From a virus (lineage: Duplodnaviria > Caudoviricetes), in the IMG/VR virus record IMGVR_UViG_3300024287_000001, positions 1 to 44,990 of that record: a stretch of DNA of 44,990 nucleotides; one strand, written 5' to 3'. Position numbers and translations under genes: made by a program. The notes under the pieces were generated by a model that had not been told where the DNA came from, did no database searches, and was given only the letters and a program-made list of their open reading frames with translations. Positions 12,563 through 33,154 of the stretch are shown here, one piece after another. Position 1 is the stretch's first letter; each line of letters starts with the position of its first letter.

Positions 12563-12571
12563 GGGGTTAAC

Positions 12572-12763: not shown

Positions 12764-12779
12764 TACCAGCAACAACTAA

Positions 12780-12813: not shown

Positions 12814-12823
12814 GCGTTTCAGG

Positions 12824-14894: not shown

Positions 14895-14895
14895 G

Positions 14896-16313: not shown

Positions 16314-16315
16314 CA

Positions 16316-17197: not shown

Positions 17198-17342
17198 CGT
17201 CAACCCTCCCATTCCCGCAGCACACGATACACGTCTGAATGACGTGCTCGATGATTGGATTCCCATTGCCGTCGTATGACGCATGGGGGTACTCGATCTG
17301 GCCCGACCCGAGACAGGCCAGACACGGCATCTCGGTCATCAT
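17187..17342 (-). CDS. Small DnaJ-type zinc-finger protein
   Basis: Two CxxCxGxG motifs; SD AAGGAGG. Confidence 0.7.
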   Translation of the reverse strand: MMTEMPCLACLGSGQIEYPHASYDGNGNPIIEHVIQTCIVCCGNGRVDDGS

Positions 17343-17431
17343 CCCTCCTTGAACATTCCGCAGTTGATGCAGGTCAGGCCGTACCTCTTGCCGTCCCACG
17401 CCCTGATCCAGCAGTGCTTGCACTCACTCAC
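17339..17431 (-). CDS. 30-aa Cys-rich microprotein
   Basis: MSECKHCWIRAWDGKRYGLTCINCGMFKEG; GTGA overlap with the helicase stop. Confidence 0.55.
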   Translation of the reverse strand: MSECKHCWIRAWDGKRYGLTCINCGMFKEG

Positions 17432-18276: not shown

Positions 18277-18277
18277 G

Positions 18278-18397
18278 TCAGTGCCCCGTCAGCTTGGAGA
18301 TGGCCACGATCAGCATGAACAGCATCCCGAGGAAGAACAGGAGACCGAAGCCGCAACCCTGCGGGCCGCCGTTCGACTGTCGATTCGGACCGGACAT
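18278..18397 (-). CDS. 39-aa membrane protein
   Basis: TAATG coupling; MSGPNRQSNGGPQGCGFGLLFFLGMLFMLIVAISKLTGH. Confidence 0.65.
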   Translation of the reverse strand: MSGPNRQSNGGPQGCGFGLLFFLGMLFMLIVAISKLTGH

Positions 18398-18573
18398 TAC
18401 AGCTCCTCAATAGCAACGACGTGAGCCAGGAAGATGGTCTCTCGGGATGACCGGGAATTGATGGTGATCCGGTTGACCTTGGCGGCGATAGCCTCACCCA
18501 TCAAGTCGTCCATCTTGCTGAAGTCGACATCGGTCGTAACCTGAAGACCGGTCACCATGTGAATCCGAATCAT
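18397..18573 (-). CDS. Hypothetical protein
   Basis: SD GAGGAG before MIRIHMV. Confidence 0.65.
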   Translation of the reverse strand: MIRIHMVTGLQVTTDVDFSKMDDLMGEAIAAKVNRITINSRSSRETIFLAHVVAIEEL

Positions 18574-18617
18574 GCCCTCTCCTCTAAAGATTTCCTGTGG
18601 ATTTGTGTGCATTTGCG

Positions 18618-18659
18618 TGGACCGGAGGGGAGTCGAACCCCTCCTACGACCATCGGCCC
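18618..18659 (-). ncRNA. tRNA-like minihelix (acceptor stem + T arm, no D or anticodon arm)
   Basis: GGGCCGA-UGGUCGUAGG-AGGGG-UUCGACU-CCCCU-CCGGUCC-A; canonical T-loop; G3.U70 and A73. Confidence 0.6.
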
Positions 18660-18665
18660 TACCTG

Positions 18666-19163
18666 TTACGCAGTCTTCACGATCTTCACGCTGTACTTGT
18701 ACCGCGGCTTGACCTTGGCGAGCTGCTTGTAAGCCCACATGGTGCCCTCGCCGATGGTCGCCTCGGTGTCGAGCAACTCCTCCTTGAACTTGTCAAGGGT
18801 GTCGCCGTTCTTCAGCTCCCAGGTGGCATCGAAGGGCTCGAAGCCCTCCACCTTCTCACCCTTGGAGTTCTTCTTGCCGACCACCCGGACGGGGATCTCC
18901 ACGTCCTTCTCGTCCGGCAGGAACGAACCGGCCACCTTCTCCGGGTCGAAGGTGCCCTCACCCATGGGCTGCCACTTGGCGCCATCGTAGGGCTGGACGA
19001 TCCACTTGACCTTGCCCTCAACCTTCTGCGGAACCTGCTTCGGCTCGCCGGTCTGCAGAAGAAGCAGGCTCTCCCCGACCTCCTCGAACTTGATCCACTT
19101 CTGGTCGGAGGACTTGACCTTCGGGGCGTTGGGGTCACCGAACAGGTCTGCGTACGTTGCCAT
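18666..19163 (-). CDS. Putative ssDNA-binding protein
   Basis: KWIKFEEVGE N-terminus, highly biased codons, replication-module context. Confidence 0.55.
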   Translation of the reverse strand: MATYADLFGDPNAPKVKSSDQKWIKFEEVGESLLLLQTGEPKQVPQKVEGKVKWIVQPYDGAKWQPMGEGTFDPEKVAGSFLPDEKDVEIPVRVVGKKNSKGEKVEGFEPFDATWELKNGDTLDKFKEELLDTEATIGEGTMWAYKQLAKVKPRYKYSVKIVKTA

Positions 19164-19214
19164 GCTTTGCTCTCCTTGGTTTGGTTCTTACATGGTACCC
19201 GAGGACTGCTCGGG

Positions 19215-19610
19215 TCACCAGCCGTCGACGTCCACGACAACTTCGGGTGCAGGCTTCTTGGTCTCCCAGGGCTTCGGCTTGGCCGCAGGTGCGGCCTGCT
19301 TGTACGGAGCCTCGTTGACGTTCTCGATCTCAGTGGCGCCAAGGCCCTCAGTGACAGCCTGGACGGCCTCATCCTGGTCGCCCGAGGATTCCTCCAGGAC
19401 CGGCACCGCAGGCTGCGAGACGGGCGCCTGAGCGCCCGCAGCGATGGCCCGACCGGCCACCACCTCAGCCTGCTGGAAGGCATTGAGGGTGTTGGCATAC
19501 AGCGTTGCCAGCATCTCGGGGTTGAGCCGTGCAGCCTCTTCCTCGGTGCCCCGCCAGCTGACGTAGGCATACGGGATAGCGCTCGGCAGTCGGAACTCAA
19601 TCTCAGCCAT
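19215..19610 (-). CDS. Hypothetical protein (acidic, Ala/Pro-rich tail)
   Basis: SD GAGGAG; TGATG coupling. Confidence 0.75.
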   Translation of the reverse strand: MAEIEFRLPSAIPYAYVSWRGTEEEAARLNPEMLATLYANTLNAFQQAEVVAGRAIAAGAQAPVSQPAVPVLEESSGDQDEAVQAVTEGLGATEIENVNEAPYKQAAPAAKPKPWETKKPAPEVVVDVDGW

Positions 19611-19732
19611 CAGTTCTCCTCATCGTCCGACTCGTCACTCATGTGGTCCTCCGCCAGCGGGCAAAGGTCCCACTCGTCAGGGTCCTCACAGGTACAACTC
19701 CCCCAGTCGGAGAAGTATGCCCGGTCATCCAT
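19610..19732 (-). CDS. 40-aa acidic microprotein
   Basis: MDDRAYFSDWGSCTCEDPDEWDLCPL...; SD AGGAAGG. Confidence 0.6.
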   Translation of the reverse strand: MDDRAYFSDWGSCTCEDPDEWDLCPLAEDHMSDESDDEEN

Positions 19733-19743
19733 GCCTTCCTGGT

Positions 19744-19926
19744 TCACTTCGACTCCCTCTTTACCTGAGCTGCAACCAGGACTTCCCGGTGACCCTCCTT
19801 GTCGACCAGGTCCAGGAACCCATTGCCGTCCACCTCAAGGTGGTAACCGGCGCCGAAGGCGCGGGCGAACGCCTCGTAAATGGTGTTGGCGTGCTGCGCC
19901 TGAGTCTTAGAAGGGAGGCTGGTCAT
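19744..19926 (-). CDS. Hypothetical protein
   Basis: SD AGGAG before MTSLPSK. Confidence 0.6.
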   Translation of the reverse strand: MTSLPSKTQAQHANTIYEAFARAFGAGYHLEVDGNGFLDLVDKEGHREVLVAAQVKRESK

Positions 19927-20731
19927 GTCGACTCCTGTCGTAGTACCTTGCTCGGTCACTCAACGGCCCTGAATACTCAAGGCAGTTGACGTTGTTGAAA
20001 CACATCTTGCACATGTACTTCTTCTTGGCCTGAATCTGCATGGATTCCATGGCAGTCCGAACCTCTTGATACTTGGCCCCGACTTCGGTCGGGTCCACCT
20101 CGGAAAGATCGATGGGCCTGGCGACTGCGGCACCAGGCGCCAGCATGCAGAACCGGCCCTTGAACTTGATGTCCTTGAACCTGGGATCCAGCTTCAGTCT
20201 GGCGCCATAGGTTTCCAGCTGGAAGTTGTTCGAGGGCTTCTTGTTGCCGGACTTCCAGTCGTCGATGATCGGGCCAAGCTTCTTGTGCTCACCGACGATG
20301 TCGACGAAGCAGGAAAGGTCCACGGACAGCCCTGGAAGGGGCCCTGAGGCATCGTACTCCACCTCCCAGACATCTATGTCCTCCAAGAACTCCAAGGCCC
20401 TCTCGAAGCAGTCCTTGACCCTCTGGAGAGCCTTGTCTCCGGTGATGAAGCCGTTCTTCTCGGAGCCACCAGCCAGCCACTTGGAGAGATCGGGTTCGAT
20501 CTCCATCTGGGCGGAGATGAGCGGGTAGAAGTAGTCCTCGGCATCGTCAATCGGGTGGGTGGTGTTAGTGAGGTGATCCTCAACCATCGAGTGAACCGCG
20601 GAACCGATCGGGATGTACCAGGTCTGCACCTGCTCAGCCTGGCGGAGCTTGGAGAGGTACCAGTTCCGCGGGCAGTCCTTGTACGTGGAGTACTGGCTGA
20701 AGCTGATGTGTGGCGGAAGAGAGTATGTCAT
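19907..20731 (-). CDS. Cas4/RecB-like PD-(D/E)xK exonuclease
   Basis: HISFSQ...CPRNWYL, GSAVH, FVD, DWKSG, QLETY, CKMC...C. Confidence 0.9.
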   Translation of the reverse strand: MTYSLPPHISFSQYSTYKDCPRNWYLSKLRQAEQVQTWYIPIGSAVHSMVEDHLTNTTHPIDDAEDYFYPLISAQMEIEPDLSKWLAGGSEKNGFITGDKALQRVKDCFERALEFLEDIDVWEVEYDASGPLPGLSVDLSCFVDIVGEHKKLGPIIDDWKSGNKKPSNNFQLETYGARLKLDPRFKDIKFKGRFCMLAPGAAVARPIDLSEVDPTEVGAKYQEVRTAMESMQIQAKKKYMCKMCFNNVNCLEYSGPLSDRARYYDRSRHDQPPF

Positions 20732-21375
20732 CCCCTCACCTTAGCAGCAGCGCGCTTCTTCTGCACGCTGGCCAAGTCACGCTCAGCCTTGCAGGGGCGG
20801 CACACGTAGCCGGTGCTTCCGCGGTCGGTCCTGGCCACCCACTCGTCATGGTTCTTGCTGCATCGAATCCCGCGACTGAAGGGGACGCGCTTAGGGCGCG
20901 GCTTCTTGGCCTGCTTGTTGCGCCACTTCTTCTGATACTCGGAGGAGCAGACTCGGCAGTACCGAGAACCGTTGCTCCTGGGCTGCCAGTCGTTGTGACC
21001 CTCGGAGCACGTGTCCTCAGGGTCCTCTGAAGGCTTGGGCCCCGCGGTCGGCCCGAGAGGCCGACCTTTGTTTCCGAAGGGGATCGGAGGCATGATTCCA
21101 GCCCTCATGGACCACTCAAAATCTTCAGGGCTGGCGGATGAGTAGCAGAGATGCCACATAGGGCAGCTGTCGCAGATCTTCTTGGCCGCAGCCATGTTGG
21201 TGTCGTTGAGATCCCTGATCTCCACGCTTGTCAGGCCCTCAGCTACGGCGTCGCCCGGAAAGGCGACGTCGAACAGACTTGAAGGACTGAAGGCGCAGGC
21301 TGCCTCATCCTGCCAAATCCAGGTGTCAACCTCCCAGTCGTACACGGGGTCGGTCAGCAGGTGGGTGGTCTTCAT
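20728..21375 (-). CDS. WhiB-family transcription factor with two extra C-terminal Cys/His modules
   Basis: WQDEAAC...AKKICDSCPMWHLC...WSMRAG; then CSEGH..CRVC and CSKNH..CRPC. Confidence 0.8.
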   Translation of the reverse strand: MKTTHLLTDPVYDWEVDTWIWQDEAACAFSPSSLFDVAFPGDAVAEGLTSVEIRDLNDTNMAAAKKICDSCPMWHLCYSSASPEDFEWSMRAGIMPPIPFGNKGRPLGPTAGPKPSEDPEDTCSEGHNDWQPRSNGSRYCRVCSSEYQKKWRNKQAKKPRPKRVPFSRGIRCSKNHDEWVARTDRGSTGYVCRPCKAERDLASVQKKRAAAKVRG

Positions 21376-21448
21376 CTCTCTTCACTCTCCGCCCAAGGGG
21401 ACACGCCTCAGCGTGGACCCGTAGATCAACTGTGGTTGCTTACTGAAT

Positions 21449-21463
21449 AGTCTGTAGAGAACT
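21449..21463 (-). promoter_or_regulatory. Leader motif AGTTCTCTACAGACT (14/15 identical to 30977-30991 on +)
   Basis: Direct comparison of two operon leaders. Confidence 0.45.
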
Positions 21464-21579
21464 GTACGGGCTGCCCTCCCTGGGGGTCGGACAGCCCTTG
21501 ACCTGCGAACTTCGCAAGCTTCACAGTTAAGGAAACGTTTTGATCATGCTCCTTTGTTCCCTCTAGAAATTTTTCATGG

Positions 21580-21595
21580 CGTGACGTACATCACA
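21580..21595. promoter_or_regulatory. CRP-like palindrome upstream of the replication operon
   Basis: CGTGA-N6-TCACA vs consensus TGTGA-N6-TCACA. Confidence 0.45.
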
Positions 21596-21601
21596 TCACT
21601 C

Positions 21602-21703
21602 TCAGTGCATCCCCTTGGACTTGGCGTAGAAGTACATGATCAAGCCCAGGATGCCAACCAGGAGCATCAGGTCCCCTAGGCCACGCTTCTTCTTCTCGTT
21701 CAT
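21602..21703 (-). CDS. 33-aa membrane protein
   Basis: MNEKKKRGLGDLMLLVGILGLIMYFYAKSKGMH; ATGA coupling. Confidence 0.65.
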   Translation of the reverse strand: MNEKKKRGLGDLMLLVGILGLIMYFYAKSKGMH

Positions 21704-21819
21704 GACTCCTCTTCCTCGGTCATTCTGACCTGATTCCGGGCAGCACTGAACAGCGCTGCATCTTCGTCGTACTCATACCCAGCAAACGACTCGTCAGACA
21801 TTGCGTCGTAGTTGTGCAC
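21700..21819 (-). CDS. 39-aa acidic microprotein
   Basis: SD AGGGAG before the GTG; MHNYDAMSDESFAGYEY... Confidence 0.55.
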   Translation of the reverse strand: MHNYDAMSDESFAGYEYDEDAALFSAARNQVRMTEEEES

Positions 21820-21851
21820 AGGTTCTCCCTAAACGGAATGGGTGACGCTTG

Positions 21852-21860
21852 TGGTACTAT
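21852..21860 (+). promoter_or_regulatory. Extended -10 promoter giving a leaderless mRNA
   Basis: TG-G-TACTAT ends 7 nt before ATG 21868; no SD. Confidence 0.55.
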
Positions 21861-21867
21861 GTGCCAC

Positions 21868-22629
21868 ATGAAGACAACTGTGGTCGTTCCCGACATCCAG
21901 TGGCCCTATCATGATGGGGTCGCACTCAAAAAGGTGCTTAAGGTCATTGAGGACGTGCAGCCCTCTCAGGTAGTGCAGATCGGTGACGGCATCGACTTTC
22001 CCCAGGTGTCCCAGTGGTCTGTAGGTACGGCAGGAGCCTACGCACAGGACCTTCAGGAGCACATTGAGGGGTACCGCAAGGGTTTCCTTGCAGCGGTCCG
22101 AGATCGGGCCCCTAGGGCCCGTCTGCGGTGGCTGGAGGGCAATCACGACTTGCGCATCACTGCGTTCGTCAAGAAGTACGCTCCAGCCCTCTCGTCTCTC
22201 TCTTCCCTGTCGATGCCGTCACTGTTCGATCTGGAACCGCTTGGCTGGTCCTATGAGCAGGGCCCGATCAACATCGGGACCAACGTCTACGCGATCCACG
22301 GCCATGAGGCACCGGGGTACGCGCAGACCATCTCAGCATGGGACACCAAGTATGCCAAGCGCTACGGGTCGCACCGTTCCTACGTGTTCGGTCACACTCA
22401 CCAGCCTGCCCTTGTCACCCGAGCATTCGGATTCGAGGGCAAGGTGGACAGTCGCTTCACCATGAACGTCGGAAGCATCATGGATCCAGTGAAGGCCACC
22501 TACGTCAAGGACGGTAGTGTCTCCTGGACCATGTCTTTCGGACTGATTCACGATGACGGGAAGAGAGTGTACCCGGAGCTTGTTTGCATGACTGATCGTG
22601 GATTTTTTCTGGAAGGCAGGAAGTACTGA
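21868..22629 (+). CDS. Metallophosphoesterase (calcineurin-like)
   Basis: PDIQ, IGDGID, EGNHD, HGH and FGHTH motifs. Confidence 0.9.
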   Translation: MKTTVVVPDIQWPYHDGVALKKVLKVIEDVQPSQVVQIGDGIDFPQVSQWSVGTAGAYAQDLQEHIEGYRKGFLAAVRDRAPRARLRWLEGNHDLRITAFVKKYAPALSSLSSLSMPSLFDLEPLGWSYEQGPINIGTNVYAIHGHEAPGYAQTISAWDTKYAKRYGSHRSYVFGHTHQPALVTRAFGFEGKVDSRFTMNVGSIMDPVKATYVKDGSVSWTMSFGLIHDDGKRVYPELVCMTDRGFFLEGRKY

Positions 22630-23306
22630 TGACCTTTCTCGATGAGGTTGAGCCGCTCGTTCTCAAGGCGGCGATTGCAACTGTGCGGAAGTGGCCTTCC
22701 TATGTCGCGCTGGAGGATGTGGAGCAGGAGCTGAGGCTCTGGACTCTCACTAAGCAGAACTCCATCGAGACGGCCATGCGAGTGCAGGGCTGGGAAGCCA
22801 AGGTCTACTCCACGATGCTGAAGGTCGCTTCTAGCGCCGCATCTCTGGAGGACCAGCAGACAAATGGTTATTCAAAGGAGGACACGTACTCATATTCAGT
22901 ACCTGTCCTCGAAACACTTCTGGAATCCTGCTTCACCCATGAGGACTGGCAGTCGTTCGGCACCTTCGGTGACGGCATGCCACACGCCAAGGGCCAGGTC
23001 AATGAGACTGGTGACGTGCTGGCGATGCTCTCGGACGTGAAGGCTGGACTTGCCACCCTGAAGGCGGAGTACAGGGAGGTCCTGTACTACCGGTTCGGAC
23101 TCAAGTACACACACGAGGAGTTCGGGGAGCTCAAGGGCATCACCAAGGGCACGGCTCACCAGCGTTCCAGGCGAGCCGTAAGGGCCTTGCAGGCGGCCCT
23201 TGGGCAGGTGGACCTCACCGAGCTCCAGAACGGCTGGAGCGAGCGCAGAGAGGTTTTCAACAGTGATCGTTCCCAGATCTTGACGGAGCGGCAGTACAAC
23301 GGATGA
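22629..23306 (+). CDS. Sigma-factor-like protein (region 4 HTH)
   Basis: LEDVEQEL region-2-like segment; REVLYYRFGLKYTHEEFGELKGITKGTAHQRSRRA. Confidence 0.72.
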   Translation: MTFLDEVEPLVLKAAIATVRKWPSYVALEDVEQELRLWTLTKQNSIETAMRVQGWEAKVYSTMLKVASSAASLEDQQTNGYSKEDTYSYSVPVLETLLESCFTHEDWQSFGTFGDGMPHAKGQVNETGDVLAMLSDVKAGLATLKAEYREVLYYRFGLKYTHEEFGELKGITKGTAHQRSRRAVRALQAALGQVDLTELQNGWSERREVFNSDRSQILTERQYNG

Positions 23307-23311
23307 CCAGC

Positions 23312-23342
23312 AAGGCCCGGCACTCCGGTGCCGGGCCTTTTT
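23312..23342 (+). terminator. Intrinsic terminator between convergent genes
   Basis: AAGGCCCGGCAC-TCCG-GTGCCGGGCCTT followed by a T run. Confidence 0.88.
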
Positions 23343-23344
23343 GG

Positions 23345-23689
23345 TTACTTCACGTCGTACGCCCGAACATGCGCCCGATTGAGCGTGAAGGTGTTTCCGG
23401 TCTTCACGTTCTCTGCGAGTGCCAGCGGAGCGCCGTTCACCTTTGCCGCGGTGACGTGGTGGATGTAGACCTCGTTGCCGCCCATGGTGCGATACGTCTC
23501 CCCCTCCTCGAAGAACGGCTCAGGAGCGAGCTCCCAATTCTTCAATTCGTCGTCCTCATAGAGCCGAACGTTGTTGTGGTGCCCTTCTCGCACGACGTAG
23601 AAATACCCCTCCACGCTTCCGATGTAGAGCCAGCGGCTGCGACTGCCAGACCGACGGATGACCTCTCCCACCTTAGGGAAGTAGTCCAT
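23345..23689 (-). CDS. Hypothetical protein
   Basis: TAATG-coupled start MDYFPKVG. Confidence 0.7.
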   Translation of the reverse strand: MDYFPKVGEVIRRSGSRSRWLYIGSVEGYFYVVREGHHNNVRLYEDDELKNWELAPEPFFEEGETYRTMGGNEVYIHHVTAAKVNGAPLALAENVKTGNTFTLNRAHVRAYDVK

Positions 23690-24210
23690 TACCTGTTCCT
23701 CACCTTCACGTAATACTTCTTCATGTTCTCGTTCGAATCGGGCTGGATCTGCCCGGTTGCCAGGTCCTCCAGCAATACGCACTTGTTCCCTACGGCAATG
23801 ACCTTGCCGTGGTAGTAGCGCTGACTCCTGGATACAATGTTGCCGACCTGCCACTCCTCGTTCTTGCGAAGGAGTTCCGGGTCGGACCTGGTGTACTCGG
23901 TATACTTCCAGTACGGAGAATCCAGTGGTGCGAAGTCTCCGAACCGGCAGTCTGACGAGACAATCCATGCGTGCTCGCCATTGGTCCACGCAACAAGGTG
24001 GACCTTTGTGGTGAATGGAGACTTGAAGACTGCCCCCTCATGGAGAGGGGGCGTGCCAGCCTTCACGTCCTTGGTCAGCATGCCATGGAAGCCGTCAACG
24101 ATCCGGCGGCAGAACTTGGTGAGGGATTCCTCATCCTCCGCCCCCTTGTCGATCAGTTCCTCCAGCCATTCGACCTGCTTAGCTCTGGTCGGCAGGGTCA
24201 ATCGTCTCAC
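23689..24210 (-). CDS. Hypothetical protein
   Basis: Contiguous ORF, 173 aa. Confidence 0.7.
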   Translation of the reverse strand: MRRLTLPTRAKQVEWLEELIDKGAEDEESLTKFCRRIVDGFHGMLTKDVKAGTPPLHEGAVFKSPFTTKVHLVAWTNGEHAWIVSSDCRFGDFAPLDSPYWKYTEYTRSDPELLRKNEEWQVGNIVSRSQRYYHGKVIAVGNKCVLLEDLATGQIQPDSNENMKKYYVKVRNR

Positions 24211-24409
24211 TCTCCATGGTCACTCGCCCGATGGCGCGGAACACCGGCCGCGTGGTGGTCACCGACTTGTGGACGTACCATTCGGTGTTGGGGTAGATCT
24301 GCGCCAACTCCAGAGCCTTCGCCTGAGCCTGGGGGAGCTCACCATCCTCGAACCTGTAAGAGTTTATGTACGGTTCGGTCAGGTTGACGTCGTCGCTCAC
24401 GTAGTGCAT
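24179..24409 (-). CDS. Hypothetical protein
   Basis: SD AAAGGA before ATG. Confidence 0.65.
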   Translation of the reverse strand: MHYVSDDVNLTEPYINSYRFEDGELPQAQAKALELAQIYPNTEWYVHKSVTTTRPVFRAIGRVTMESETIDPADQS

Positions 24410-24426
24410 ACGCTTCCTTTCGTAGC

Positions 24427-24478
24427 AGGGCCATAGGCCGACAGGAGGGAGAGAGGTCTCCTGTCGACTTAAAGCCCT
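24427..24478 (-). ncRNA. Candidate anti-SD hairpin RNA complementary to the shared early-gene RBS
   Basis: GUCGACAGGAG-ACCUCUCUCC-CUCCUGUCGGC; complementary to GCCGACAAAGGGAGAGAG. Confidence 0.6.
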
Positions 24479-24497
24479 ACCCCCGAAGAGGCAGGGC
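24474..24497 (-). terminator. UUCG hairpin (terminator-like) overlapping the 5' arm of the anti-SD hairpin
   Basis: GCCCUGCCUC-UUCG-GGGGUAGGGC-UUU. Confidence 0.5.
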
Positions 24498-24508
24498 GGT
24501 TTTCTCTC

Positions 24509-24682
24509 CTACTTTTCGATCGGGTGAACGAACTCGGAGGGGAAGAGCTCGAAGTCTCGAACTCCCTCCCACTCAAAGCCGACAACGCTCATCGGCCGGT
24601 TGTCGACAGACGAAACCTCCATCAGGAGGACGCCATCGAAATCCGCGTAGCCAGGTGCATCGACAACCCTGACGTCATTCAT
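24509..24682 (-). CDS. 57-aa hypothetical protein (absent from the ORF track)
   Basis: SD GGAGG; MNDVRVVDAPGYADFDGVLLMEV... Confidence 0.7.
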   Translation of the reverse strand: MNDVRVVDAPGYADFDGVLLMEVSSVDNRPMSVVGFEWEGVRDFELFPSEFVHPIEK

Positions 24683-24698
24683 GGTACCTCCACTAGAT

Positions 24699-24800
24699 GG
24701 GCGGAAAGGGATGCATGAGGGGAAGTTCTTACCATCATAGGCGTGCGCTCCTAGGTAAGTGCCTACTTATGTTCGGCACCTCATGCATCCTTTACCGCCC
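24699..24800 (-). ncRNA. Branched structured RNA closed by a ~20-bp stem
   Basis: Arms 24699-24720 and 24779-24800; inner helices 24728-33/24754-59, 24738-41/24750-53, 24759-63/24775-79. Confidence 0.55.
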
Positions 24801-24822
24801 ACCCCGAAGGGTGGGCGTACTG

Positions 24823-25008
24823 CTAGTTACCCTTGTGCCTTGCGACTGCTGCGACTCCCGCAAAGAAGATGCTGTAGCCGACGAACGCTCCACCAGCCAG
24901 GGAAACGAGAATCTGATTCCCCGGTGTGGTGAACGCGTAGATCAGCCCCAGGACCCCGACAACACCAAGAAGGCTGCTAGCGGTTGCCATTGCTGAAGAA
25001 AATCGCAT
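24823..25008 (-). CDS. Early membrane protein (2 TM)
   Basis: Shared SD AAGGGAGAGAG; two hydrophobic segments. Confidence 0.8.
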   Translation of the reverse strand: MRFSSAMATASSLLGVVGVLGLIYAFTTPGNQILVSLAGGAFVGYSIFFAGVAAVARHKGN

Positions 25009-25090
25009 CTCTCTCCCTTGATCAGCCCCTAGTTGGGCAAGTCAACCACCCTCCCTGAAGGGAGGGTGGCTCAATGAACACTAGGAACTA

Positions 25091-25543
25091 CTACTTCTTT
25101 TCATAGTACAGGTCGACCAGGCGTGCATGCAGAGCCTGCATGCCTCCGTCGCCATTGATGTCGTCACCGGGCAACGCCGTTTCGACGTGATCGATGTTGG
25201 CCGTGTTGAGGCGACCGCTGGGGTGGGCGTCCGAGATGGTGCCCTCACCCACCCTGTGCACCAAGGACTTGCCCCGGAGGGGGATGGTGTTCCTGAGCGC
25301 TTCCGCCTCGGCGCTGACGTCCTCGCCAACCATGGCGCGGGCCACCAGCTTTGCGGTCTCCCGAACCAGCTCGGGGCTCGGCTCCGTGTCGTCATCCACG
25401 ACCAGTTCGGTCTGAACGGCCCAAGGTCCTACGTAGGTGATCATGTAGGGCTGCTTGGAGTCCAGTTGCCGAACGTTGTTGCGGTCGGAGATGCCGTTCT
25501 CGGCGGGGTTCATGTCGCCCATCGAGTCACACTTCCAGCACAT
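25091..25543 (-). CDS. Early hypothetical protein
   Basis: Shared SD directly upstream. Confidence 0.8.
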   Translation of the reverse strand: MCWKCDSMGDMNPAENGISDRNNVRQLDSKQPYMITYVGPWAVQTELVVDDDTEPSPELVRETAKLVARAMVGEDVSAEAEALRNTIPLRGKSLVHRVGEGTISDAHPSGRLNTANIDHVETALPGDDINGDGGMQALHARLVDLYYEKK

Positions 25544-25621
25544 TTTCTCTCTCCCTTGATTGTTCTGATCGGCTGTAGTGCCGTCTCAACGCACGGCCCG
25601 GAGGCCGTGCGCTCAGCTTAG

Positions 25622-25756
25622 CTACAGAGTTTCGTCGTCCAGCTCCCAGTCAAGCGCGGTGTTTTCGTCGTTCTCTTCGTCTGCCATGATCACCTCACAG
25701 GCGTAGCAGTCGTACAGCGTTCCGGGCCAGTGCGGGTAATCCACGTGATTCACCAT
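25622..25756 (-). CDS. 44-aa early protein
   Basis: MVNHVDYPHWPGTLYDCYACEV...; stop lies in the repeat stem. Confidence 0.65.
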   Translation of the reverse strand: MVNHVDYPHWPGTLYDCYACEVIMADEENDENTALDWELDDETL

Positions 25757-25965
25757 GACTCATCCTCCTCCGAGAACATGAGATCCCACACCCTTGCGGG
25801 GTAGTTCTCTAGGTGCTGCTCGATCTCCGCAGCGGTCGCGTAGAGACTGCCGTCACCGTGGTACTCACGGCACAGCCAAACCTCTTGACCCTCTGCATTG
25901 ACCTCGAACACGCCCCAAGTGGCGTAGTGGCGCTTTTCGATGCGGAATGCCTGATTGCGCCTCAT
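25750..25965 (-). CDS. Early hypothetical protein
   Basis: ATGA coupling; SD AGGAG. Confidence 0.7.
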   Translation of the reverse strand: MRRNQAFRIEKRHYATWGVFEVNAEGQEVWLCREYHGDGSLYATAAEIEQHLENYPARVWDLMFSEEDESW

Positions 25966-26354
25966 GATTCACCGCTCCTGTCAACCACCGTGAAGATGGT
26001 GACGACGGAGGGGTCGCCGGGCCTTGACGGGCGAAGAATGGCCCCGTCGACGGTGGCGTTGTCCACCTTCACCGAGCTCAACTGCGCGATGTCTTGGCTG
26101 GACCACTCAATCCAGAGGGTGGTCGCTTCCGCCTCGGTGTCCACGAAGTGCTCCGTGGTTCCGTAGCGGTACTCACCCTTGGTGTTATTGGTGATCCGGA
26201 TGTGGAATCGCTTCGCGGCATTCCGGCGCCGCTCGATGTCCGTGTTGACCAGCCCAAAAAGGGCTGCGTCGTAGTCGTCCTCGGTAAGCAGGCCGCGGTC
26301 GAACTTCTGGGAGGCCATTTCGATGGACTGCCACAGTTCGATGTTGTCGCTCAT
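25962..26354 (-). CDS. Early hypothetical protein
   Basis: Start reassigned to MSDNIELW after the shared SD. Confidence 0.8.
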   Translation of the reverse strand: MSDNIELWQSIEMASQKFDRGLLTEDDYDAALFGLVNTDIERRRNAAKRFHIRITNNTKGEYRYGTTEHFVDTEAEATTLWIEWSSQDIAQLSSVKVDNATVDGAILRPSRPGDPSVVTIFTVVDRSGES

Positions 26355-26429
26355 TCTCTCTCCCTTTGTCGGCTGAGATGCCGTCCCAACCAACGGGCCG
26401 CCGAAGCGGCCCGAAGGCTCGGAGTGGTC

Positions 26430-26726
26430 TCAGCTGTCGAGCATGTATTCCCACGCGGCGGTGAGGTTGTCGTAGTCCTCCTGGTGATTCCAGGCGTTCA
26501 GCTGCTCCCCGGTGAGCTCAAAGCCGTAGGCGGTCTGCCGCTTACGGTCTCCATACAGGCCGATGAGCGGCAGAGCGTCCATGTAGTGCCCGTAGAGCTG
26601 CCCCAGGATGCAGTCCTCCTGACTGCCGAGATCCAGGATGGTGCGCTCAATCTCTCCGCGCCATCCGGGCCGGATGTCGTCCAGGAATTCCATGCCAGCC
26701 TGCACACGCTCAAGTGTGGTAGCCAT
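26430..26726 (-). CDS. Early hypothetical protein
   Basis: Start MATTLERV after the shared SD; stop in the repeat stem. Confidence 0.8.
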   Translation of the reverse strand: MATTLERVQAGMEFLDDIRPGWRGEIERTILDLGSQEDCILGQLYGHYMDALPLIGLYGDRKRQTAYGFELTGEQLNAWNHQEDYDNLTAAWEYMLDS

Positions 26727-26802
26727 TTTCTCTCTCCCTTTGTCGATCATCATGTGGCCATGATGCCGTCGCAACGCTCCCTTTCGGGAGCGCTCCGAGT
26801 GG

Positions 26803-27027
26803 TCATGGACGGTTGGCGCCCGGCAGGCCCTGCAGCTTGCCGTACTTGTTGATCCACCTGAACACCTTGCATTCACCGACGCCGATTCCCCCGGTCCACG
26901 TCAGGGGCTTCCAGCACGTGAAGCAGAGGACCTCTTCGTGGTGGTCATGAAAGAACACAACCAATTGGCTGGGTTCTTTCGGGCAACGGTCGCAGGACTT
27001 GAAGATGGGGCCTGTGTACTTAGCCAT
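26803..27027 (-). CDS. Early protein with two CxxC motifs
   Basis: TGATG-coupled MAKYTGP; stop in the repeat stem. Confidence 0.7.
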   Translation of the reverse strand: MAKYTGPIFKSCDRCPKEPSQLVVFFHDHHEEVLCFTCWKPLTWTGGIGVGECKVFRWINKYGKLQGLPGANRP

Positions 27028-27215
27028 CAGATGCTCACCATCTTTCCGTCCAGGTAGGTGTAGCACGTCTTGTTGGTGCTGTCGTACCGACCCAGAACGC
27101 GGTACGCCCCAGCCTTGCTGAGGCCGGTGTAAATGGCGATTGCGTGGTTACGCCAACCGAAGACATACGGGGCGAACACGCGGACCTCGAAATCCTTGCC
27201 CAGTTCAACACTCAT
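27027..27215 (-). CDS. Early hypothetical protein
   Basis: Shared SD directly upstream. Confidence 0.8.
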   Translation of the reverse strand: MSVELGKDFEVRVFAPYVFGWRNHAIAIYTGLSKAGAYRVLGRYDSTNKTCYTYLDGKMVSI

Positions 27216-27283
27216 TGTTCTCTCTCCCTTTGTCGGCTGAGATGCCGAGTCAAGCGGCCCCGGAGGGCCGCCTCACGCTGGTC

Positions 27284-27559
27284 TCAGACACTCTCGCTGC
27301 GAAGCTTGATGTCATTCAGTGTGCGAATGATGGTGTGGAGGCGGTCGAAAGCCTCGCGGGCGGTGTGGCCCAAAACGCCGTAATCGACGCCAATGGGCGA
27401 GTCGCCCATGCCGACGTACCGAATAGACCACGGAATGCCCATGCTGGGCGTGCCTTCGGTGTACTGCAAGCCGCCGTCAAGCAGGTCATGCGCCTGAAGC
27501 GTGCGAACGTAGGCGTCCACAGCGTTCTGAAGCATGCCCCTGGTGATTCGCTGCGCCAT
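27284..27559 (-). CDS. Early hypothetical protein
   Basis: Start MAQRITRG after the shared SD; stop in the repeat stem. Confidence 0.8.
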   Translation of the reverse strand: MAQRITRGMLQNAVDAYVRTLQAHDLLDGGLQYTEGTPSMGIPWSIRYVGMGDSPIGVDYGVLGHTAREAFDRLHTIIRTLNDIKLRSESV

Positions 27560-27632
27560 TGTTCTCTCTCCCATTCATTCGGCTGAGATGCCGTGGCAAC
27601 GGCCACTCAAGGGTGGCCGCTCCCGGGAGGTC

Positions 27633-27695
27633 TCAGACGGTGCGGTACAGGTAGCCGATGAACCAGACGAGCCCCGCAAGGGCCAGGAAGGCCAT
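27633..27695 (-). CDS. 20-aa hydrophobic peptide
   Basis: MAFLALAGLVWFIGYLYRTV; TGATG-coupled, stop falls on the repeat's TGA. Confidence 0.6.
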   Translation of the reverse strand: MAFLALAGLVWFIGYLYRTV

Positions 27696-27970
27696 CAGTA
27701 TTCGTCGTGGTGGCACGGCTGAGGCAGCCAGTACGGCTTCTGCCCCAGGCGCTCATCGATGGCGGCGGTGTCAAGGTAAATGGTGCCACTGCCATCCATC
27801 CGCCGGACGATGTACATACTGTCGCCGGACTCCGTGAATCCGAAGAACTGCCACACCTGGTAGACGTGCCCGTTCATCTCGAACACGCTGTCCAGGTACC
27901 ACTCATCCTTGCAACGGTCGCAGTACGCGGAACCGTCGACGGTGAAGTGTCGGCACTGTTCGTGCGTCAT
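27695..27970 (-). CDS. Early hypothetical protein
   Basis: SD GAGGAG before MTHEQC. Confidence 0.7.
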   Translation of the reverse strand: MTHEQCRHFTVDGSAYCDRCKDEWYLDSVFEMNGHVYQVWQFFGFTESGDSMYIVRRMDGSGTIYLDTAAIDERLGQKPYWLPQPCHHDEY

Positions 27971-27972
27971 GA

Positions 27973-28143
27973 TCAGATCTCCTCTTGGGTGCGAATAGCG
28001 CCGGAAAGGGTGACAGTCCATCCGGGAAAGCCCTGAATGGCTTCGGTGGCACGCTCGGTTGCATCCTCCAGGGAGTTGCCCCAGGCGGAGACAATGACGT
28101 CCGTGCCGTAGTCACTGATCATGATCGCTTCATACTCAATCAT
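27973..28143 (-). CDS. Early hypothetical protein
   Basis: Start MIEYEAI after the shared SD. Confidence 0.78.
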   Translation of the reverse strand: MIEYEAIMISDYGTDVIVSAWGNSLEDATERATEAIQGFPGWTVTLSGAIRTQEEI

Positions 28144-28210
28144 GTCTCTCTCCCTTTGGTCGGCTGAGATGCCGTCACAACGGCCCCCGAAGGGGCCGCT
28201 CTGAGTGGTC

Positions 28211-28351
28211 TCAGACGCAAGCGTCACAGTTGCAGAAGCTGATGATGATCAGACAATCTTCGCAGTCAACCTCAGTGGGTCGCAGCGACACGTCATCGTC
28301 GGCGGAGTTGAATTTCCCGCATGCGGTGAAGCTTTCTCCGTAGTGGATCAC
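28211..28351 (-). CDS. 46-aa Cys-rich early protein
   Basis: GTGA-coupled; H..ACG..VDCEDC..CNCDAC; stop in the repeat stem. Confidence 0.65.
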   Translation of the reverse strand: MIHYGESFTACGKFNSADDDVSLRPTEVDCEDCLIIISFCNCDACV

Positions 28352-28509
28352 GATTCGTCCTCGCTCTCGCGCTCCATCAGGATCAGCTCAATTGTGTGAG
28401 CTTCCTCCTGAGTGACGTTCAGCCAGCGAGTCTCCCCGTTGCTGGACGTCACCTTGACGCGCATGTCGGAGCCGCTCAGCTTGTTGAATTCGCGCTCGAT
28501 GTAGCCCAT
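28348..28509 (-). CDS. Early hypothetical protein
   Basis: Start MGYIEREF after the shared SD. Confidence 0.78.
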   Translation of the reverse strand: MGYIEREFNKLSGSDMRVKVTSSNGETRWLNVTQEEAHTIELILMERESEDES

Positions 28510-28576
28510 GATCTCTCTCCCTTTGTCGGCTGAGATGCCGTCGCAACGCTCCCTTTCGGGAGCGCTCCGAGTGGTC

Positions 28577-28786
28577 TCAGTAGACGTATCGATTGGCCGC
28601 GAAAGCCACTTCCCACTCCTGTGCGACGGGCCACCAGGCGACCACGTAGGTGCCTTCCTCGCGGTCATCCCAGAGGCTGATCTCCGCACCGGCGGCCAGC
28701 CATTCATCGGCTATCGCGCCGACACTTTCCTCCCGAGTGATGAAGCATTCGAGGGTTGCGCTGTCAATCAGGCGGTTGAGCATCAC
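28577..28786 (-). CDS. Early hypothetical protein
   Basis: GTGA-coupled; stop in the repeat stem. Confidence 0.7.
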   Translation of the reverse strand: MMLNRLIDSATLECFITREESVGAIADEWLAAGAEISLWDDREEGTYVVAWWPVAQEWEVAFAANRYVY

Positions 28787-28899
28787 GACTCATCCTCACT
28801 CTGCGTGGTGTACAGCTGGTTGCTGGCGGAGGTGATGAGGTCCATGTCCTCCAGCTCACTGAGCTCCCGGTTCATGCGTTCTTCGCAGAACGTGTCCAT
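28783..28899 (-). CDS. 38-aa acidic early protein
   Basis: MDTFCEERMN...; starts 2 nt after the previous stop. Confidence 0.55.
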   Translation of the reverse strand: MDTFCEERMNRELSELEDMDLITSASNQLYTTQSEDES

Positions 28900-28901
28900 G
28901 G

Positions 28902-29087
28902 TCAGTCCCCCCATACCCACGCTGCGCGGTCCGTGCAGGTTTCGCACGTTCCGCAAGTGCAGGTGACCTTGACGTCGTCCGCACCACACGCCCACAGAAT
29001 GTCGGCGTACAGGTCGGCCACGTCCCTTTCCCAGCCGCCCTGAGTGATCACTCGACCATCAGGCCACTTGACCGTAATTTCAAACAT
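28902..29087 (-). CDS. First early gene, C-terminal CxCxxCxxC
   Basis: Shared SD directly upstream. Confidence 0.78.
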   Translation of the reverse strand: MFEITVKWPDGRVITQGGWERDVADLYADILWACGADDVKVTCTCGTCETCTDRAAWVWGD

Positions 29088-29426
29088 GTCTCTCTCCCTT
29101 GTCTAAACGCACGGCATCGAGCCGTGCGCCTACAGCCACGGGAAGGGCCTCAAGACGGCCACAAGGACCACCAAGCGCCCTTCCCGCACTGTATAGCTAG
29201 GGAAAGAGAGAGGATGCGTGCGAACTCGATCAGGCCGCGTCGCTACCAGCATTACCCGTCATCCCAATCAAGGGATAAGCGACGGCTAGGGGCTGGACAC
29301 CCATTGCCTACGGACTGTCGCGCTACCTACTTGATCTAGGGCGCTCACCGCGAGCTCAACGGATGCTGTCATGGCGACAGGCACCTGATGCGCTTGCCCT
29401 CATGTTCGAGGGGCTCGCACGCTGCT

Positions 29427-29449
29427 CACTATTGAATTCACAAGGAACG
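29427..29449 (-). promoter_or_regulatory. rrn boxA-like antitermination element, copy 2
   Basis: CGTTCCTTGTGAATTCAATAGTG resembles the actinobacterial rrn boxA as recalled (GTT..TTGAGAACTCAAYAG). Confidence 0.65.
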
Positions 29450-29940
29450 TGGGTTCATTTCAGGGATTGTGAACGCGGTCTGCCATCCTGTCTGCGCCAA
29501 GCTCTGAAAGCCTTGACTAGGCTGTTGTAGCCCTCCGAAGAGAACCCGCCACGACACCGACTACGTGTCCCTGTCCTGCCACTACAGGGCCCCCTGGACG
29601 CTGCCTCACCTGACCGAGTGGCCCCAGGTCGCCTGCCCACCTGAGAGAGCGTGAGGGGGCATCCTGGAGCGTTCGGCGCGGTGCGACCCGTGAGGGAGCA
29701 CTGCTACCAGCGTGCCAACGTGTGTGTGTTGCGGGTAATGGTGCTGCCCCGCGTCTTGCTGTGTGACCAGGCTTGGAGTGTCCATCACGCCACTGACGTC
29801 CTGCCCTCCCGTAGGGGCTACGGACTAGCGTCAGTGCAACGCTTCTCACCCGCATGTCGCTGCGACCTGTACAAGCGCCTCTCGACTCCACCTGGCGCCC
29901 AAGGATCGGGCTCATGGGCATAGATCTGCCCGCTGGTGTG

Positions 29941-29964
29941 TTGGCACGCTGTTGAGTTCTCAAG
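29941..29964 (-). promoter_or_regulatory. rrn boxA-like element plus processing-stem 5' arm, copy 1
   Basis: CTTGAGAACTCAACAGCGTGCCAA matches the Streptomyces 16S leader as recalled; needs BLAST confirmation. Confidence 0.7.
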
Positions 29965-30489
29965 CCAGAGGCGCTCGGGCCTGTCCTGCGCCCTGCGCCC
30001 TCACGCCCCGCTGTGTGCTCGGGTCGTGCTGACAGGGAGAATCTCAACGGCAGTGAGCGCTTGCCATACAAGTCAAAGGTAGGTAAAGCCCGACCTACAG
30101 GAGGGCGCAAAGGGCCGCTGACCTGGGCTGATGGCCTTCTAAAGAATCTTGGAAACTCATGGCCTCTTGACTCGCTCTTTACCGAAACAGCCCTCGCGAG
30201 GTGGTTACTGATGAGTACGAAAGAAAGCACTTTCTAAAGGGTTTGTCCTTCAATGTCCTATGCACTACAAGCCTTGATACATAAGCAGGCTGTTTGGAAT
30301 CCATGGTCGCAGGGCCTGATGCCCTGCGTTCTGAAGGCAGATTGGTCGAAAGATCATGAGATCTAAGGGTCTGCCTGTAAGGGTTGGTGGGCTGTGGTGG
30401 TCCTTACTGTTGCCCTTCTCGTCAGGGTGACAATAGTCCCCCTCCTTCAAATCCATGCCTAAGCGCCCGCTTAGCCTTGATAATCCAGG

Positions 30490-30790
30490 CAGATTCATGG
30501 ATATCCCTGCGTTCAGCTACTTATCCGCCATTCATGGATATGAACAATTGCATGGGCCCTCAATTCAATGGACTGCCATTGGATTGTGCACAATCTATAT
30601 AGATTGCATGGGCCACCTATCTATGTAGCTATGCAAGTGTGCAGGCTGAAAGACTTAGGCGGAGTGGAATGCACAGCTGAAGACTTTAGGCTTGAAGGCT
30701 GCACATCCCAAGGCTTTCTCGATAAACTCTTCAGCCTGCATAAAGTTGACCCGGGCATGTTTAATCGGGGCCGTGTGTGTGTGTGTGAGA
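30490..30790. repeat. AT-richer block of short direct repeats (candidate genome terminus/origin region)
   Basis: ATTCATGGATAT x2, ATTGCATGGGCC x2, GCTGAA(A)GACTT(T)AGGC x2, (GT)7 tract. Confidence 0.6.
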
Positions 30791-30801
30791 CCCCTTCCAG
30801 A

Positions 30802-30817
30802 TGTAACATGGATCACA
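30802..30817. promoter_or_regulatory. CRP-like palindrome upstream of the late operon
   Basis: TGTAA-N6-TCACA. Confidence 0.35.
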
Positions 30818-31010
30818 GGGCAACAGTCCAGACAGTCTACGCAGAGTTACCAAAGAGGGGAGTCTATGTGACTCCCCGTAGATAGTTGGTAAAGGTTTGG
30901 TCAAGCAACGTCACTTGACGGCCAGGTGACGGGTATATCCAGTAGTGAGGGAACGAAGTGACCGAACAGTCTAAGTAGTTCTCTAAAGACTTTAAAAGAT
31001 TGAGTACTTC

Positions 31011-31168: not shown

Positions 31169-33154
31169 ATGGCGAAAGTCTATGTCACCGAGGACGGGAA
31201 GCAGCACAAGAAGATTCCGGTAGCCCGGGTCCGGCCTAAAGCCGGACCTGAATCAAATGCCAGAAGCGGATCTCGCGGCGACCCCAAAGTCAGGGCGGGT
31301 AAGGAGACGGTACTCAAGTACCTCCAGCTCGGTCAGACTCAGAAGCAGGCTGCTGACGATTTGGGGATTCACCCCAACACGATTCAGTACTGGCGGAACA
31401 GTGACCAGAACTTCCGGGCCGACATGGACCGGGTCAAGCTCATGGCTCACCCGGAGACCGCTACGGAGATCCGGGCGAACATGCCGGACTTCCCGGAGTT
31501 CTGCATGGAGTACCTGGACACGCAGCTCTTCTGGCACCAGCTCCAGTGGTACGACATCCTTGAAGGCCGTGAGCCGCGGGACCTGCATCCGTCCCAGGTG
31601 TACAAGCCTGGTGACCCCGGCATGGTCATCGTCAACACTCCGCCGGAGCATTCGAAGTCCACGACCATCACCGTGAACTACGTGACCTACAGGATCTGCC
31701 AGGACCCGAACATCCGAATCATCCTGGTGTCTCAGACTCAGGAGATGGCCAAGCGCTTCCTGCGAGCGATCAAGGATCGCCTCGCTGGGGCCAACCAGTC
31801 GTACAAGAAGCTTCAGCGTGAGTTCGCCCCCAACGGCGGCTTCGATGCCAACAGCGCTTCCTGGACTGCTGACGCGATCTACATCAACGCAGAGAGCCGA
31901 GACTCGGGCGAGGCGACTCCGACCGTACAGGCCCTTGGCATGAATGGTCAGATCTACGGTAACCGAGCTGACCTTATCATCCTTGACGACACGGTGACGG
32001 GAAAGAACGCCCATGAGTTCGAGAAGCAGATCGACTGGATTCAGCGAGAAGTCATCAACCGGCTCTCGTATCCTGGGGGAACCCTCCTTCTGGTGGGTAC
32101 CCGACTGGCTCCTGTCGAGCTCTACTCCGAGATCCAGAAGCCTGAGTGGTACGGGCAGGACGAAGAGTCTCCCTGGACCTACCTCACTCAGCCTGCCGTC
32201 CTGGAGTTCGCTGACGACCCTGACGACTGGCATGTTCTCGCACCCTGGACCAACCGACCCCCGGTGTCGCTGGGAGCAAGACGACTGGTTCAAAAGAACG
32301 CAGACGGCCTCTACCCCTGGCACTCAGGAAAAGCCCTAGCAAGACGACGCGCAACGTCGTCCTCGCAGAACTGGGCGATGGTCTACCAGCAGGAGCAGGT
32401 GACAGCAGATGCCATCTTCCCGCCCGACAAGGTTGCGGCTTCTATCGACGGTATGCGAGCCGCTGGCTTCATGCAGCGTGGAGCACCGGGACATAGGTCG
32501 AACGGGATGGACGGTCTCTACGTCATTGGAGGTTTTGACCCTGCCATCACAGGACACTCCGCTGCCGTCATCCTTGGTGTCGATCGCGTGTCCGGAGTGC
32601 GGTGGGTCCTGGACGTATGGACCCGTCCCAACTGCAAGCCAGATGACCTCTTCGACAAGATCAAAGAGTGGACCGTCAAGTACCACGTGAACGAATGGGT
32701 CATCGAGAAGAACGCGATGAACCTCATGGTCACGCAGAACCGGGAACTCCGGAACTTCCTCGGCTCCCACGGCACACACCTCCGAGAGCACTTCACAGGC
32801 AACAACAAGAACGACATTGACTTCGGTGTCGCTTCCATGTCGATGCTCTGGGACGGCGCCCTGGAGGGCAAGGGGCTGATCCGGCTTCCGAGCCGGAGTC
32901 AGCAGGAAGGTGTCAAGGCTCTCGTTGAGCAGCTGGTCACCTGGTTCCCGCAGTCCAAGGCCAAGCAGGACACGGTCATGGCCCTGTGGTTCGCAGAGAC
33001 CAAGGCCCGCGAGATCGTCAACAACATTGAGGGCATCTTCCATCTGAACAACGAATACCAGTCCGAGCGCGACAAGCAGCGCAACGTAACCATTGACCTG
33101 GACTTCCTGTCGCAGGCTGCAACGGTTGAAGGATCAGGAGAATGGTGGGGATGA
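31169..33154 (+). CDS. terL: Terminase large subunit with an N-terminal HTH extension
   Basis: Walker A PPEHSKST, Walker B LIILDD, nuclease GFDPA, IEKNA, QDTVMALWF. Confidence 0.93.
   Translation: MAKVYVTEDGKQHKKIPVARVRPKAGPESNARSGSRGDPKVRAGKETVLKYLQLGQTQKQAADDLGIHPNTIQYWRNSDQNFRADMDRVKLMAHPETATEIRANMPDFPEFCMEYLDTQLFWHQLQWYDILEGREPRDLHPSQVYKPGDPGMVIVNTPPEHSKSTTITVNYVTYRICQDPNIRIILVSQTQEMAKRFLRAIKDRLAGANQSYKKLQREFAPNGGFDANSASWTADAIYINAESRDSGEATPTVQALGMNGQIYGNRADLIILDDTVTGKNAHEFEKQIDWIQREVINRLSYPGGTLLLVGTRLAPVELYSEIQKPEWYGQDEESPWTYLTQPAVLEFADDPDDWHVLAPWTNRPPVSLGARRLVQKNADGLYPWHSGKALARRRATSSSQNWAMVYQQEQVTADAIFPPDKVAASIDGMRAAGFMQRGAPGHRSNGMDGLYVIGGFDPAITGHSAAVILGVDRVSGVRWVLDVWTRPNCKPDDLFDKIKEWTVKYHVNEWVIEKNAMNLMVTQNRELRNFLGSHGTHLREHFTGNNKNDIDFGVASMSMLWDGALEGKGLIRLPSRSQQEGVKALVEQLVTWFPQSKAKQDTVMALWFAETKAREIVNNIEGIFHLNNEYQSERDKQRNVTIDLDFLSQAATVEGSGEWWG

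Follow-up and report, generated by a model that had tools for sequence, protein, structure and literature searches.

Is the early leader of this phage built like a ribosomal RNA operon of its host, and what would such a leader do? The window analyzed here is a 44,990-nt stretch of viral DNA in which the first-pass annotation had described, on the minus strand ahead of the early genes, two boxA-like elements, each followed by a helix resembling a processing stem. It had proposed that the phage loads the host rrn antitermination complex without an N-like protein to read through a hairpin-rich early arm, with two phage RNAs occupying the positions of the rRNAs. All four of the motifs are present on the minus strand where it placed them.

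The phage and its early region

The phage is related to the Streptomyces podophages of cluster BF (Beephvirinae). At the terminase (31169–33154), identity to 29 Streptomyces phage records is 60–64%, and the records among these that were examined are Beephvirinae or unclassified; the host is probably Streptomyces or a close relative. Five cluster BF podoviruses are described as having 253-bp terminal repeats, and cultured BF phages as carrying 15–21 tRNA genes (in passages of PMC9753666), whereas no tRNA gene was found in the window. One ORF at each end of the window (7–690 and 42943–44250, +) matches phrog_6654. By blastn, positions 28500–31000 have no match among cultured phages, and a 41-nt query gave weak matches only (E 0.2–8).

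The early ORFs are small and run leftward from 29087, the first (28902–29087, −) encoding 61 aa of no family. A PHROGs search over 46 ORFs named sigma-like, WhiB-like, and several replication proteins, and left 18 of the first 20 early ORFs without a family; the WhiB-like gene lies at 20728–21375 (−) and the sigma-factor-like gene at 22629–23306 (+). Consistent with the proposed absence of an N-like protein, neither an N-like family nor an RNA polymerase appeared among these 46 ORFs, most early ORFs having no family, and the many early ORFs of this kind could yet include a phage-encoded antiterminator. No CDS is annotated over the elements, between the terminase and the first early ORF, in any of the 8 cultured relatives.

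A putative early promoter, made up of a −10 and a start block (30026–30046, −), is conserved in all 7 aligned sequences and would place the transcript start at G30033, 70 nt before the first boxA. The start block rests on this alignment and on the upstream sequences of relatives: in cultured relatives, a −35 of the TTGAC type precedes it, the −10 of the window is atypical, and a consensus promoter scan did not pick the block up. The start was placed by reference to the promoter consensus. By the same reckoning, the distance from putative start to boxA is 64–66 nt in the host and 60 nt in phage Manuel.

Farther along the minus strand, a structured element of 70–90 nt is repeated before early genes (26355–26433, 26747–26808 (partial), 27219–27287, 27565–27634, 28146–28214, and 28512–28580). 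Each consists of an irregular stem closed by TGAGA/TCTCA, a variable GC hairpin, and then a long GGGAGAGAGA ribosome site. The copies fold with z-scores of −2.4 to −4.1, the core motif also occurs in some relatives, and a related contig joins 26366 to 27233; candidate roles for the repeat are an RNase III site of the T7 kind, a terminator lacking U residues, and a seam left by recombination. Separately, a match to hammerhead II at 30180–30224 (+; 17.5 bits, E 3.2) has the catalytic-core words and lacks stem I, and we discarded it as being at chance level. Short contigs from near relatives cover 29423–29964 in two soil metatranscriptomes of one study, one of which also has scattered pieces over 9001–28900; as these contigs give neither strand, ends, nor level, they were left out of the evidence.

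Match of the two elements to host rRNA operons

Element 1 (29941–29968, −) consists of a boxA-like core and downstream, boxC-like bases. When its 24-mer (29964–29941) was compared with Streptomyces rrn operons, it proved identical to the 16S leader at 24 of 24 bases, from −1 to +22, and the Streptomyces leader sequence given in the first-pass annotation was correct. We estimate that the exact 24-mer occurs in about 7000 GTDB stretches, nearly all of the matches listed being from Streptomycetaceae. At least 120 loci, drawn from 2 of the 64 parts of GTDB, were read: 60 of 120 matches have a 16S start downstream (at 103–220 nt among the matches listed), while in the other 60, the contig ends within 450 nt, before any 16S, and no match stands in another context. 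Rfam identified 16S in all 18 of the 24-mer loci tested. The 5′ half of element 1 departs from the host, reading CTGGC rather than GTTCC.

Element 2 (29427–29449, −; copy at 29443–29429) is boxA-like, matches 11 of the 13 bases of the host leader boxA, and has no partner strand. The pattern TTGWGAAYTCAAYAG, which was derived from these copies, occurs twice in the window, at the two elements, against 0.01 expected. As the first-pass annotation had stated, boxA recurs in the 16S–23S spacer of the host, where a second copy, TTGAGAACTRCACAG, precedes the 23S gene, and the host boxA forms the 5′ strand of both processing stalks. Each phage element mixes leader-type and spacer-type bases. Of 59 pattern matches in five Streptomyces genomes, 53 fall in an rrn leader or spacer. 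A nusB gene was found in 5 of 5 genomes of this genus.

The identity of element 1 is open to two readings. Passages of PMC6614801 and PMC5676007 describe the boxC of Mycobacterium tuberculosis as part of an RNase III duplex, and the 24-nt identity therefore spans the 3′ half of boxA plus a stalk strand and cannot by itself separate the two roles. It lies mostly within the host processing-stalk strand, so that Nus binding and stalk formation are not told apart by sequence at this element. In Bacillus subtilis, the element at the same rrn position, AUGAUCUUUGAAA, directly binds NusB, according to a passage of PMC13753749. In our own alignment, AUGAUCUUUGAAA falls on host CCGUUCCUUGAGA; compared with this host sequence, element 2 agrees at 11 of 13 bases and element 1 at 9 of 13. 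The G at −5 together with an intact 5′ half is found in element 2, as in all 13 of the second elements compared, and is absent from element 1 and from 6 of 14 first elements. With its near-consensus boxA, a region predicted to be unpaired, and a helix beginning six bases on, element 2 would be the better loading site.

The elements are 520 nt apart and lie about 860 and 340 nt from the first ribosome site. A conserved GTTCA...TGAAC segment just before element 2 (29453–29474, −), shared by relatives L225–L228, L233, and L234, might form a weak boxB-like hairpin; its fold is not significant (z 0.21), and hairpins preceding boxA were weak in the fold test. Between the elements lies a conserved structured module, CTGTAG...CTACAACAG (29522–29587, −), which aligns in 6 of 7 sequences and is 77–85% identical in L225–L228.

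Conservation in relatives

Among 80 terminase-linked viral loci, 47 extend at least 2.5 kb upstream, and 43 of these carry the element, with one match in 36 and two in 7 (one of them doubtful); the remaining 4 have none. The matches are confined to one strand, with 59 in 245 kb of the early strand, none on the other strand, and 3 in 831 kb downstream (redundant loci included), and the phage copies are in this sense both conserved and strand-specific. With the window and cultured phages added and redundancy removed, 54 loci were counted using a matrix trained on the same elements: 16 have at least two elements (three of these loci being weak), 36 have one, and 2 have none. Two copies are present in 6 of 8 cultured relatives and one in the other 2. 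Across 63 distinct elements, bases outside the search pattern also follow the host, with G at −5 in 55, a pyrimidine at −1 in all 63, G at +16 in 52, and G at +18 in 48.

An exact 16-mer extends the distribution to 95 IMG/VR loci, many of them low-GC contigs, and includes the BD-type Streptomyces phages Werner and Amela, in which it lies about 700 nt from the right end. The gut-type relative ct2KA10 gave no match within the 4.5 kb examined. Coding by a 237-aa ORF over element 1 (29517–30230, −) was considered as the cause of conservation and rejected, the ORF having no PHROG match and many indels among relatives.

It is highly improbable that the elements are captured rrn promoter DNA persisting as a neutral relic, or a protein site acting at the level of DNA. 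The BD phages and the non-rrn host sites share upstream bases of the host leader, which suggests capture as a block; against this, the core stays fixed across relatives while the flanks are unalignable, the copies keep to one strand, and their spacing from an RNA helix that covaries is constant, as described below.

Not all copies have a partner strand. None was found for 10 single-copy phage sites, including those of Werner and Amela, or for 5 non-rrn host sites (z −1.4 to +1.5). As the sequence is kept where a duplex cannot form, single-strand recognition is favored, and the single, unpartnered copies of the BD phages point to it. Of the 7 unpaired host sites examined, one is an rrn site, another has a long ORF on the opposite strand, and 5 lie behind promoter-like DNA. 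These last (L316–L320, from Streptomyces genomes G002–G004) have repeats in the promoter-like DNA, and four share rrn leader bases upstream. They may be leaders of integrated or plasmid mobile elements that captured the boxA module.

Long-range stems and comparison with host processing stalks

Both of the noted stems hold up at the level of complementarity. The arms of stem 1 (29951–29940 and 29719–29708, −), the 5′ arm overlapping element 1, are complementary at 12 of 12 positions with 220 nt between them, and those of stem 2 (29422–29413 and 29225–29216, −) form 10 pairs, including one G–U, around 187 nt. The minimum-energy and centroid folds contain both stems, and both are retained when the whole leader (29070–30040) is folded (z −5.4, 20 shuffles). 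A 12-bp long-range repeat also arose in 31 of 1000 shuffles. The stems alone are the weaker evidence, and their support comes from relatives.

For stem 1, this support takes the form of a predicted stalk that resembles the one in the host but is looser. In loci with two copies, a Watson–Crick helix of at least 8 bp occurs at +11 to +16 in 6 of 14 first elements; none of the 13 second elements has one, and 6 of 112 background windows do. A three-segment duplex reaching over boxA is predicted in 13 of the 14 first elements, with matched changes such as CUCC/GGAG and ACU/AGU, and 11 of the 13 duplexes are closed by CUUG paired with CAAG or CAGG (CARG), a segment missing from the window and from L234. 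The partner sites in this comparison were hand-picked and represent about five lineages, with L240 excluded for want of a clear partner; in a blind partner search, only 5 first elements, that of the window included, passed a z of −1.5. In the window, the 3′ arm with its predicted interrupted extension over the boxA core occupies 29690–29719 (−). In these predictions, stalk 1 repeats the host 16S stalk in a looser form. It would enclose domain 1 (29720–29939, −), a 220-nt multi-hairpin RNA (fold z −1.67) with no blastn match in the phage loci examined and no Rfam match.

Stem 2 is more firmly established. Its 5′ arm begins 21 nt after the first T of the TTG in element 2, and across the 63 elements, a perfect helix of at least 10 bp occurs at +21 in 18, compared with 0–10 at other offsets and 0–1 at offsets −4 to +11. 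When the 3′ arm was placed by its tail motif alone, 19 of 29 elements paired at 9 or 10 of 10 positions, compared with 7 of 2262 control windows, the tail motifs having first been noticed in stem-bearing rows. In an alignment of 20 selected sequences, 98.8% of cells pair and 7 of the 10 pairs change on both sides, whereas slid controls pair at 21–44%; the sequences are related to one another, and in each the stem or the tail was already evident when it was chosen. Of the pairs, the inner GAGC/GUUC ones scarcely change.

What stem 2 encloses varies. Domain 2 of the window (29226–29412, −) is a structured RNA of 187 nt (fold z −3.13) whose 3′ part resembles those of L240 and L264 and whose interior yielded no strong consensus structure besides the closing stem. 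The enclosed RNAs of relatives measure 70–208 nt and are of several unrelated types. Two types recur, one with a GTAGCGA hairpin (L261, L262, L267, L270, L283, and L284) and one with AGGACTTGTCC (L274, L287, L296, and L302), neither belonging to an Rfam family in the loci tested. Neither the window nor the loci of 10 relatives gave an Rfam match at the gathering score.

How far, then, does the comparison with an rRNA operon extend? In the host, the 16S stalk is continuous and covers boxA (−42 to −45 kcal/mol, z −7 to −9, 8 of 8 loci, with the spacer segment), and the 23S copy, in the one locus folded, pairs fully with the 23S 3′ flank (−73 kcal/mol, with a longer query). The corresponding values are −31.7 kcal/mol and z −2.1 for the element 1 stalk and z +0.5 for element 2, and a long continuous duplex over boxA of the kind expected of an RNase III stalk was found at neither. 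The description of the helices as processing stems is weakened: both helices are predicted and stem 2 covaries, but the stalk of element 1 is interrupted and element 2 has no partner over boxA. The idea of two RNAs in the rRNA positions is weakened too: most loci (36 of 54) have one copy, the enclosed RNAs are of unrelated types, leader and spacer bases are mixed within elements, and no catalogued RNA, whether an Rfam family or a tRNA, is enclosed. The leader corresponds only partly to a full rRNA operon.

These comparisons also bear on whether processing is the main purpose of the elements, which would then copy host stalk strands so that RNase III excises stable phage RNAs. We consider this unlikely as the main purpose, while noting that it is compatible with the explanation favored below. 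In addition to the first-element stalks and their CUUG/CARG closure, it would account for the inner end of stem 2, GCGAGC/GUUCGC, which resembles the host 23S stalk GCGAGC/GCUCGC, and the Pleft RNA of mycobacteriophage L5 is described as being cut into smaller species (PMC5712189, in part). However, the phage helices are 10–14 bp where host stalks have at least 15 bp unbroken, the CARG segment is missing from element 1 of the window, and neither element 2 nor any of the 10 single-copy phage sites tested has a partner over boxA.

A proposed role for the elements in early transcription

The first-pass annotation had expected the complex to carry polymerase through a hairpin-rich early arm, a purpose that the terminator count hardly supports: between 23000 and 31500, there are 9 U-tailed terminators compared with 5.9 ± 2.3 by chance. 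With so few above chance, protection of the leader from Rho fits better than read-through of hairpins. Terminators of Streptomyces may lack U tails.

We favor, as probably correct, an explanation in which host NusB–NusE loads at boxA, shields a leader of about 950 untranslated nt from Rho, and helps its domains to close. The match to the host leader and spacer, the conservation on the early strand, and the covariation of stem 2 are observed and agree with it. Host RNA polymerase would initiate near 30033 and, at the boxA copies, be joined by NusB–NusE and other Nus factors, and the resulting complex would shield the untranslated bases from Rho, which passages of PMC13753749 and PMC12360218 identify as the main target of this Nus complex. 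Translation would not cover the leader, as the first ribosome site is predicted to be masked by the final domain of the leader: domain 3 (29089–29209, −; −73.8 kcal/mol, z −5.16) would pair a pyrimidine tract (29209–29199) with the ribosome site of the first early gene (29099–29089). The pyrimidine tract follows stem 2 in several relatives. In L230, L299, and L301, the helix at +20/21 is itself formed by the pyrimidine tract paired with the apparent first-gene ribosome site, so that boxA, closing stem, and translation control coincide.

The long-range stems of the leader would close as they do in pre-rRNA. In the delivery model set out in part of PMC6614801, the nut-like element is kept bound by the complex, which brings 5′ strands together with 3′ strands as the latter emerge, and a helix arm fixed six bases after the element fits this model. 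Element 1, with its degenerate 5′ half and interrupted stalk, might load more weakly or, as in the host, might be released once the strand that pairs with it has been transcribed. RNase III may also cut stalk 1; early RNA of T7 has single-strand RNase III sites, according to a passage of PMC8708148. In this explanation, the function of boxA in Streptomyces is itself putative, and boxA can also promote Rho termination (PMC12360218, in part).

A more elaborate version would make the early leader of BF-type phages a miniature pre-rRNA, in which Nus factors load at each boxA and fold interchangeable cargo RNAs of 70–430 nt between covarying stems, and RNase III releases functional RNAs outside Rfam; we regard this as rather doubtful.

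Two further possibilities would give the elements another role. It is improbable that they serve as decoys, with abundant leader RNA tying up NusB–NusE and starving host rRNA synthesis early in infection. Two copies near the putative start of the first transcript, with element 2 predicted to be unpaired, would suit this role, and the right-end RNA of L5 offers an analogy in being very abundant and toxic (PMC5712189, in part). Yet L5 has no clear boxA, most loci have a single copy, and the fixed, host-like place 60–70 nt from the putative start suits action in cis. Quite improbable, in turn, is a negative boxA, as in E. coli suhB, where Nus binding promotes termination or blocks translation and would here leave leader RNA in large excess over early mRNA. 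The precedent is described in a passage of PMC12360218, the ribosome site of the first gene is predicted to be sequestered, and about 90% of L5 Pleft transcripts are reported to end after 500 nt (PMC5712189, in part), but the elements lie hundreds of nucleotides from the first ribosome site, whereas boxA is adjacent to it in suhB.

If protection of the leader by host Nus factors is correct, many actinophages use the host rRNA transcription complex without a protein of their own, and the passage of long untranslated early leaders past Rho would be explained. The phage sites separate Nus binding from stalk pairing, which are overlapping jobs in the host sequence, and thus allow a clean test both of the actinobacterial boxA and of the delivery model for RNA folding. 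Cultured phages are available with one copy (FlowerPower, Werner, and Amela) and with two (Manuel, WRightOn, and Immanuel3).

Relation to known systems

A literature search on boxA in phages, mycobacteriophages, actinobacteriophages, or Streptomyces, and on N-independent antitermination, in which few subscription journals were covered, found no paper that treats it. What the present analysis adds is the arrangement in tandem, the contrast in build between first and second elements, and a helix at +21 that covaries.

Among actinophage leader RNAs, the best studied is the Pleft RNA of L5. In L5 and D29, both cluster A mycobacteriophages, Pleft gives a non-coding RNA (described in passages of PMC5712189) that is likewise a long leader at the right genome end before small early genes. 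Read by eye, the L5 leader differs in having no clear boxA, and this absence counts against the explanation that we favor. The nut/N system of lambda and the put RNAs of HK022 (PMC12360218, in part) also involve an RNA signal that acts in cis at the head of an early operon and modifies host RNA polymerase. Unlike lambda, this phage has no N family that we could find, and its boxA is of the host rrn type. The put RNAs of HK022 are not known to involve boxA. At CRISPR arrays and suhB of Gammaproteobacteria (PMC13753749 and PMC12360218, both in part), boxA alone recruits the host Nus complex on untranslated or leader RNA, as proposed here, whereas the boxA of the window is encoded by an actinobacterial phage and is coupled to a closing helix that covaries.

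A further likeness is to the nut-like element of rrn leaders and spacers (boxB–boxA–boxC, with NusA/B/E/G, S4, and SuhB) and the RNase III stalks that accompany it. The two share a 24-nt identity, two copies per transcript, a similar distance from the inferred start, and a boxA that is next to, or partly within, the 5′ arm of a helix formed at long range. They differ in that the phage copies belong to an early transcript, stand 520 nt apart, and enclose small, variable RNAs, and in that the phage stalk 1 is interrupted while stalk 2 does not extend over boxA.
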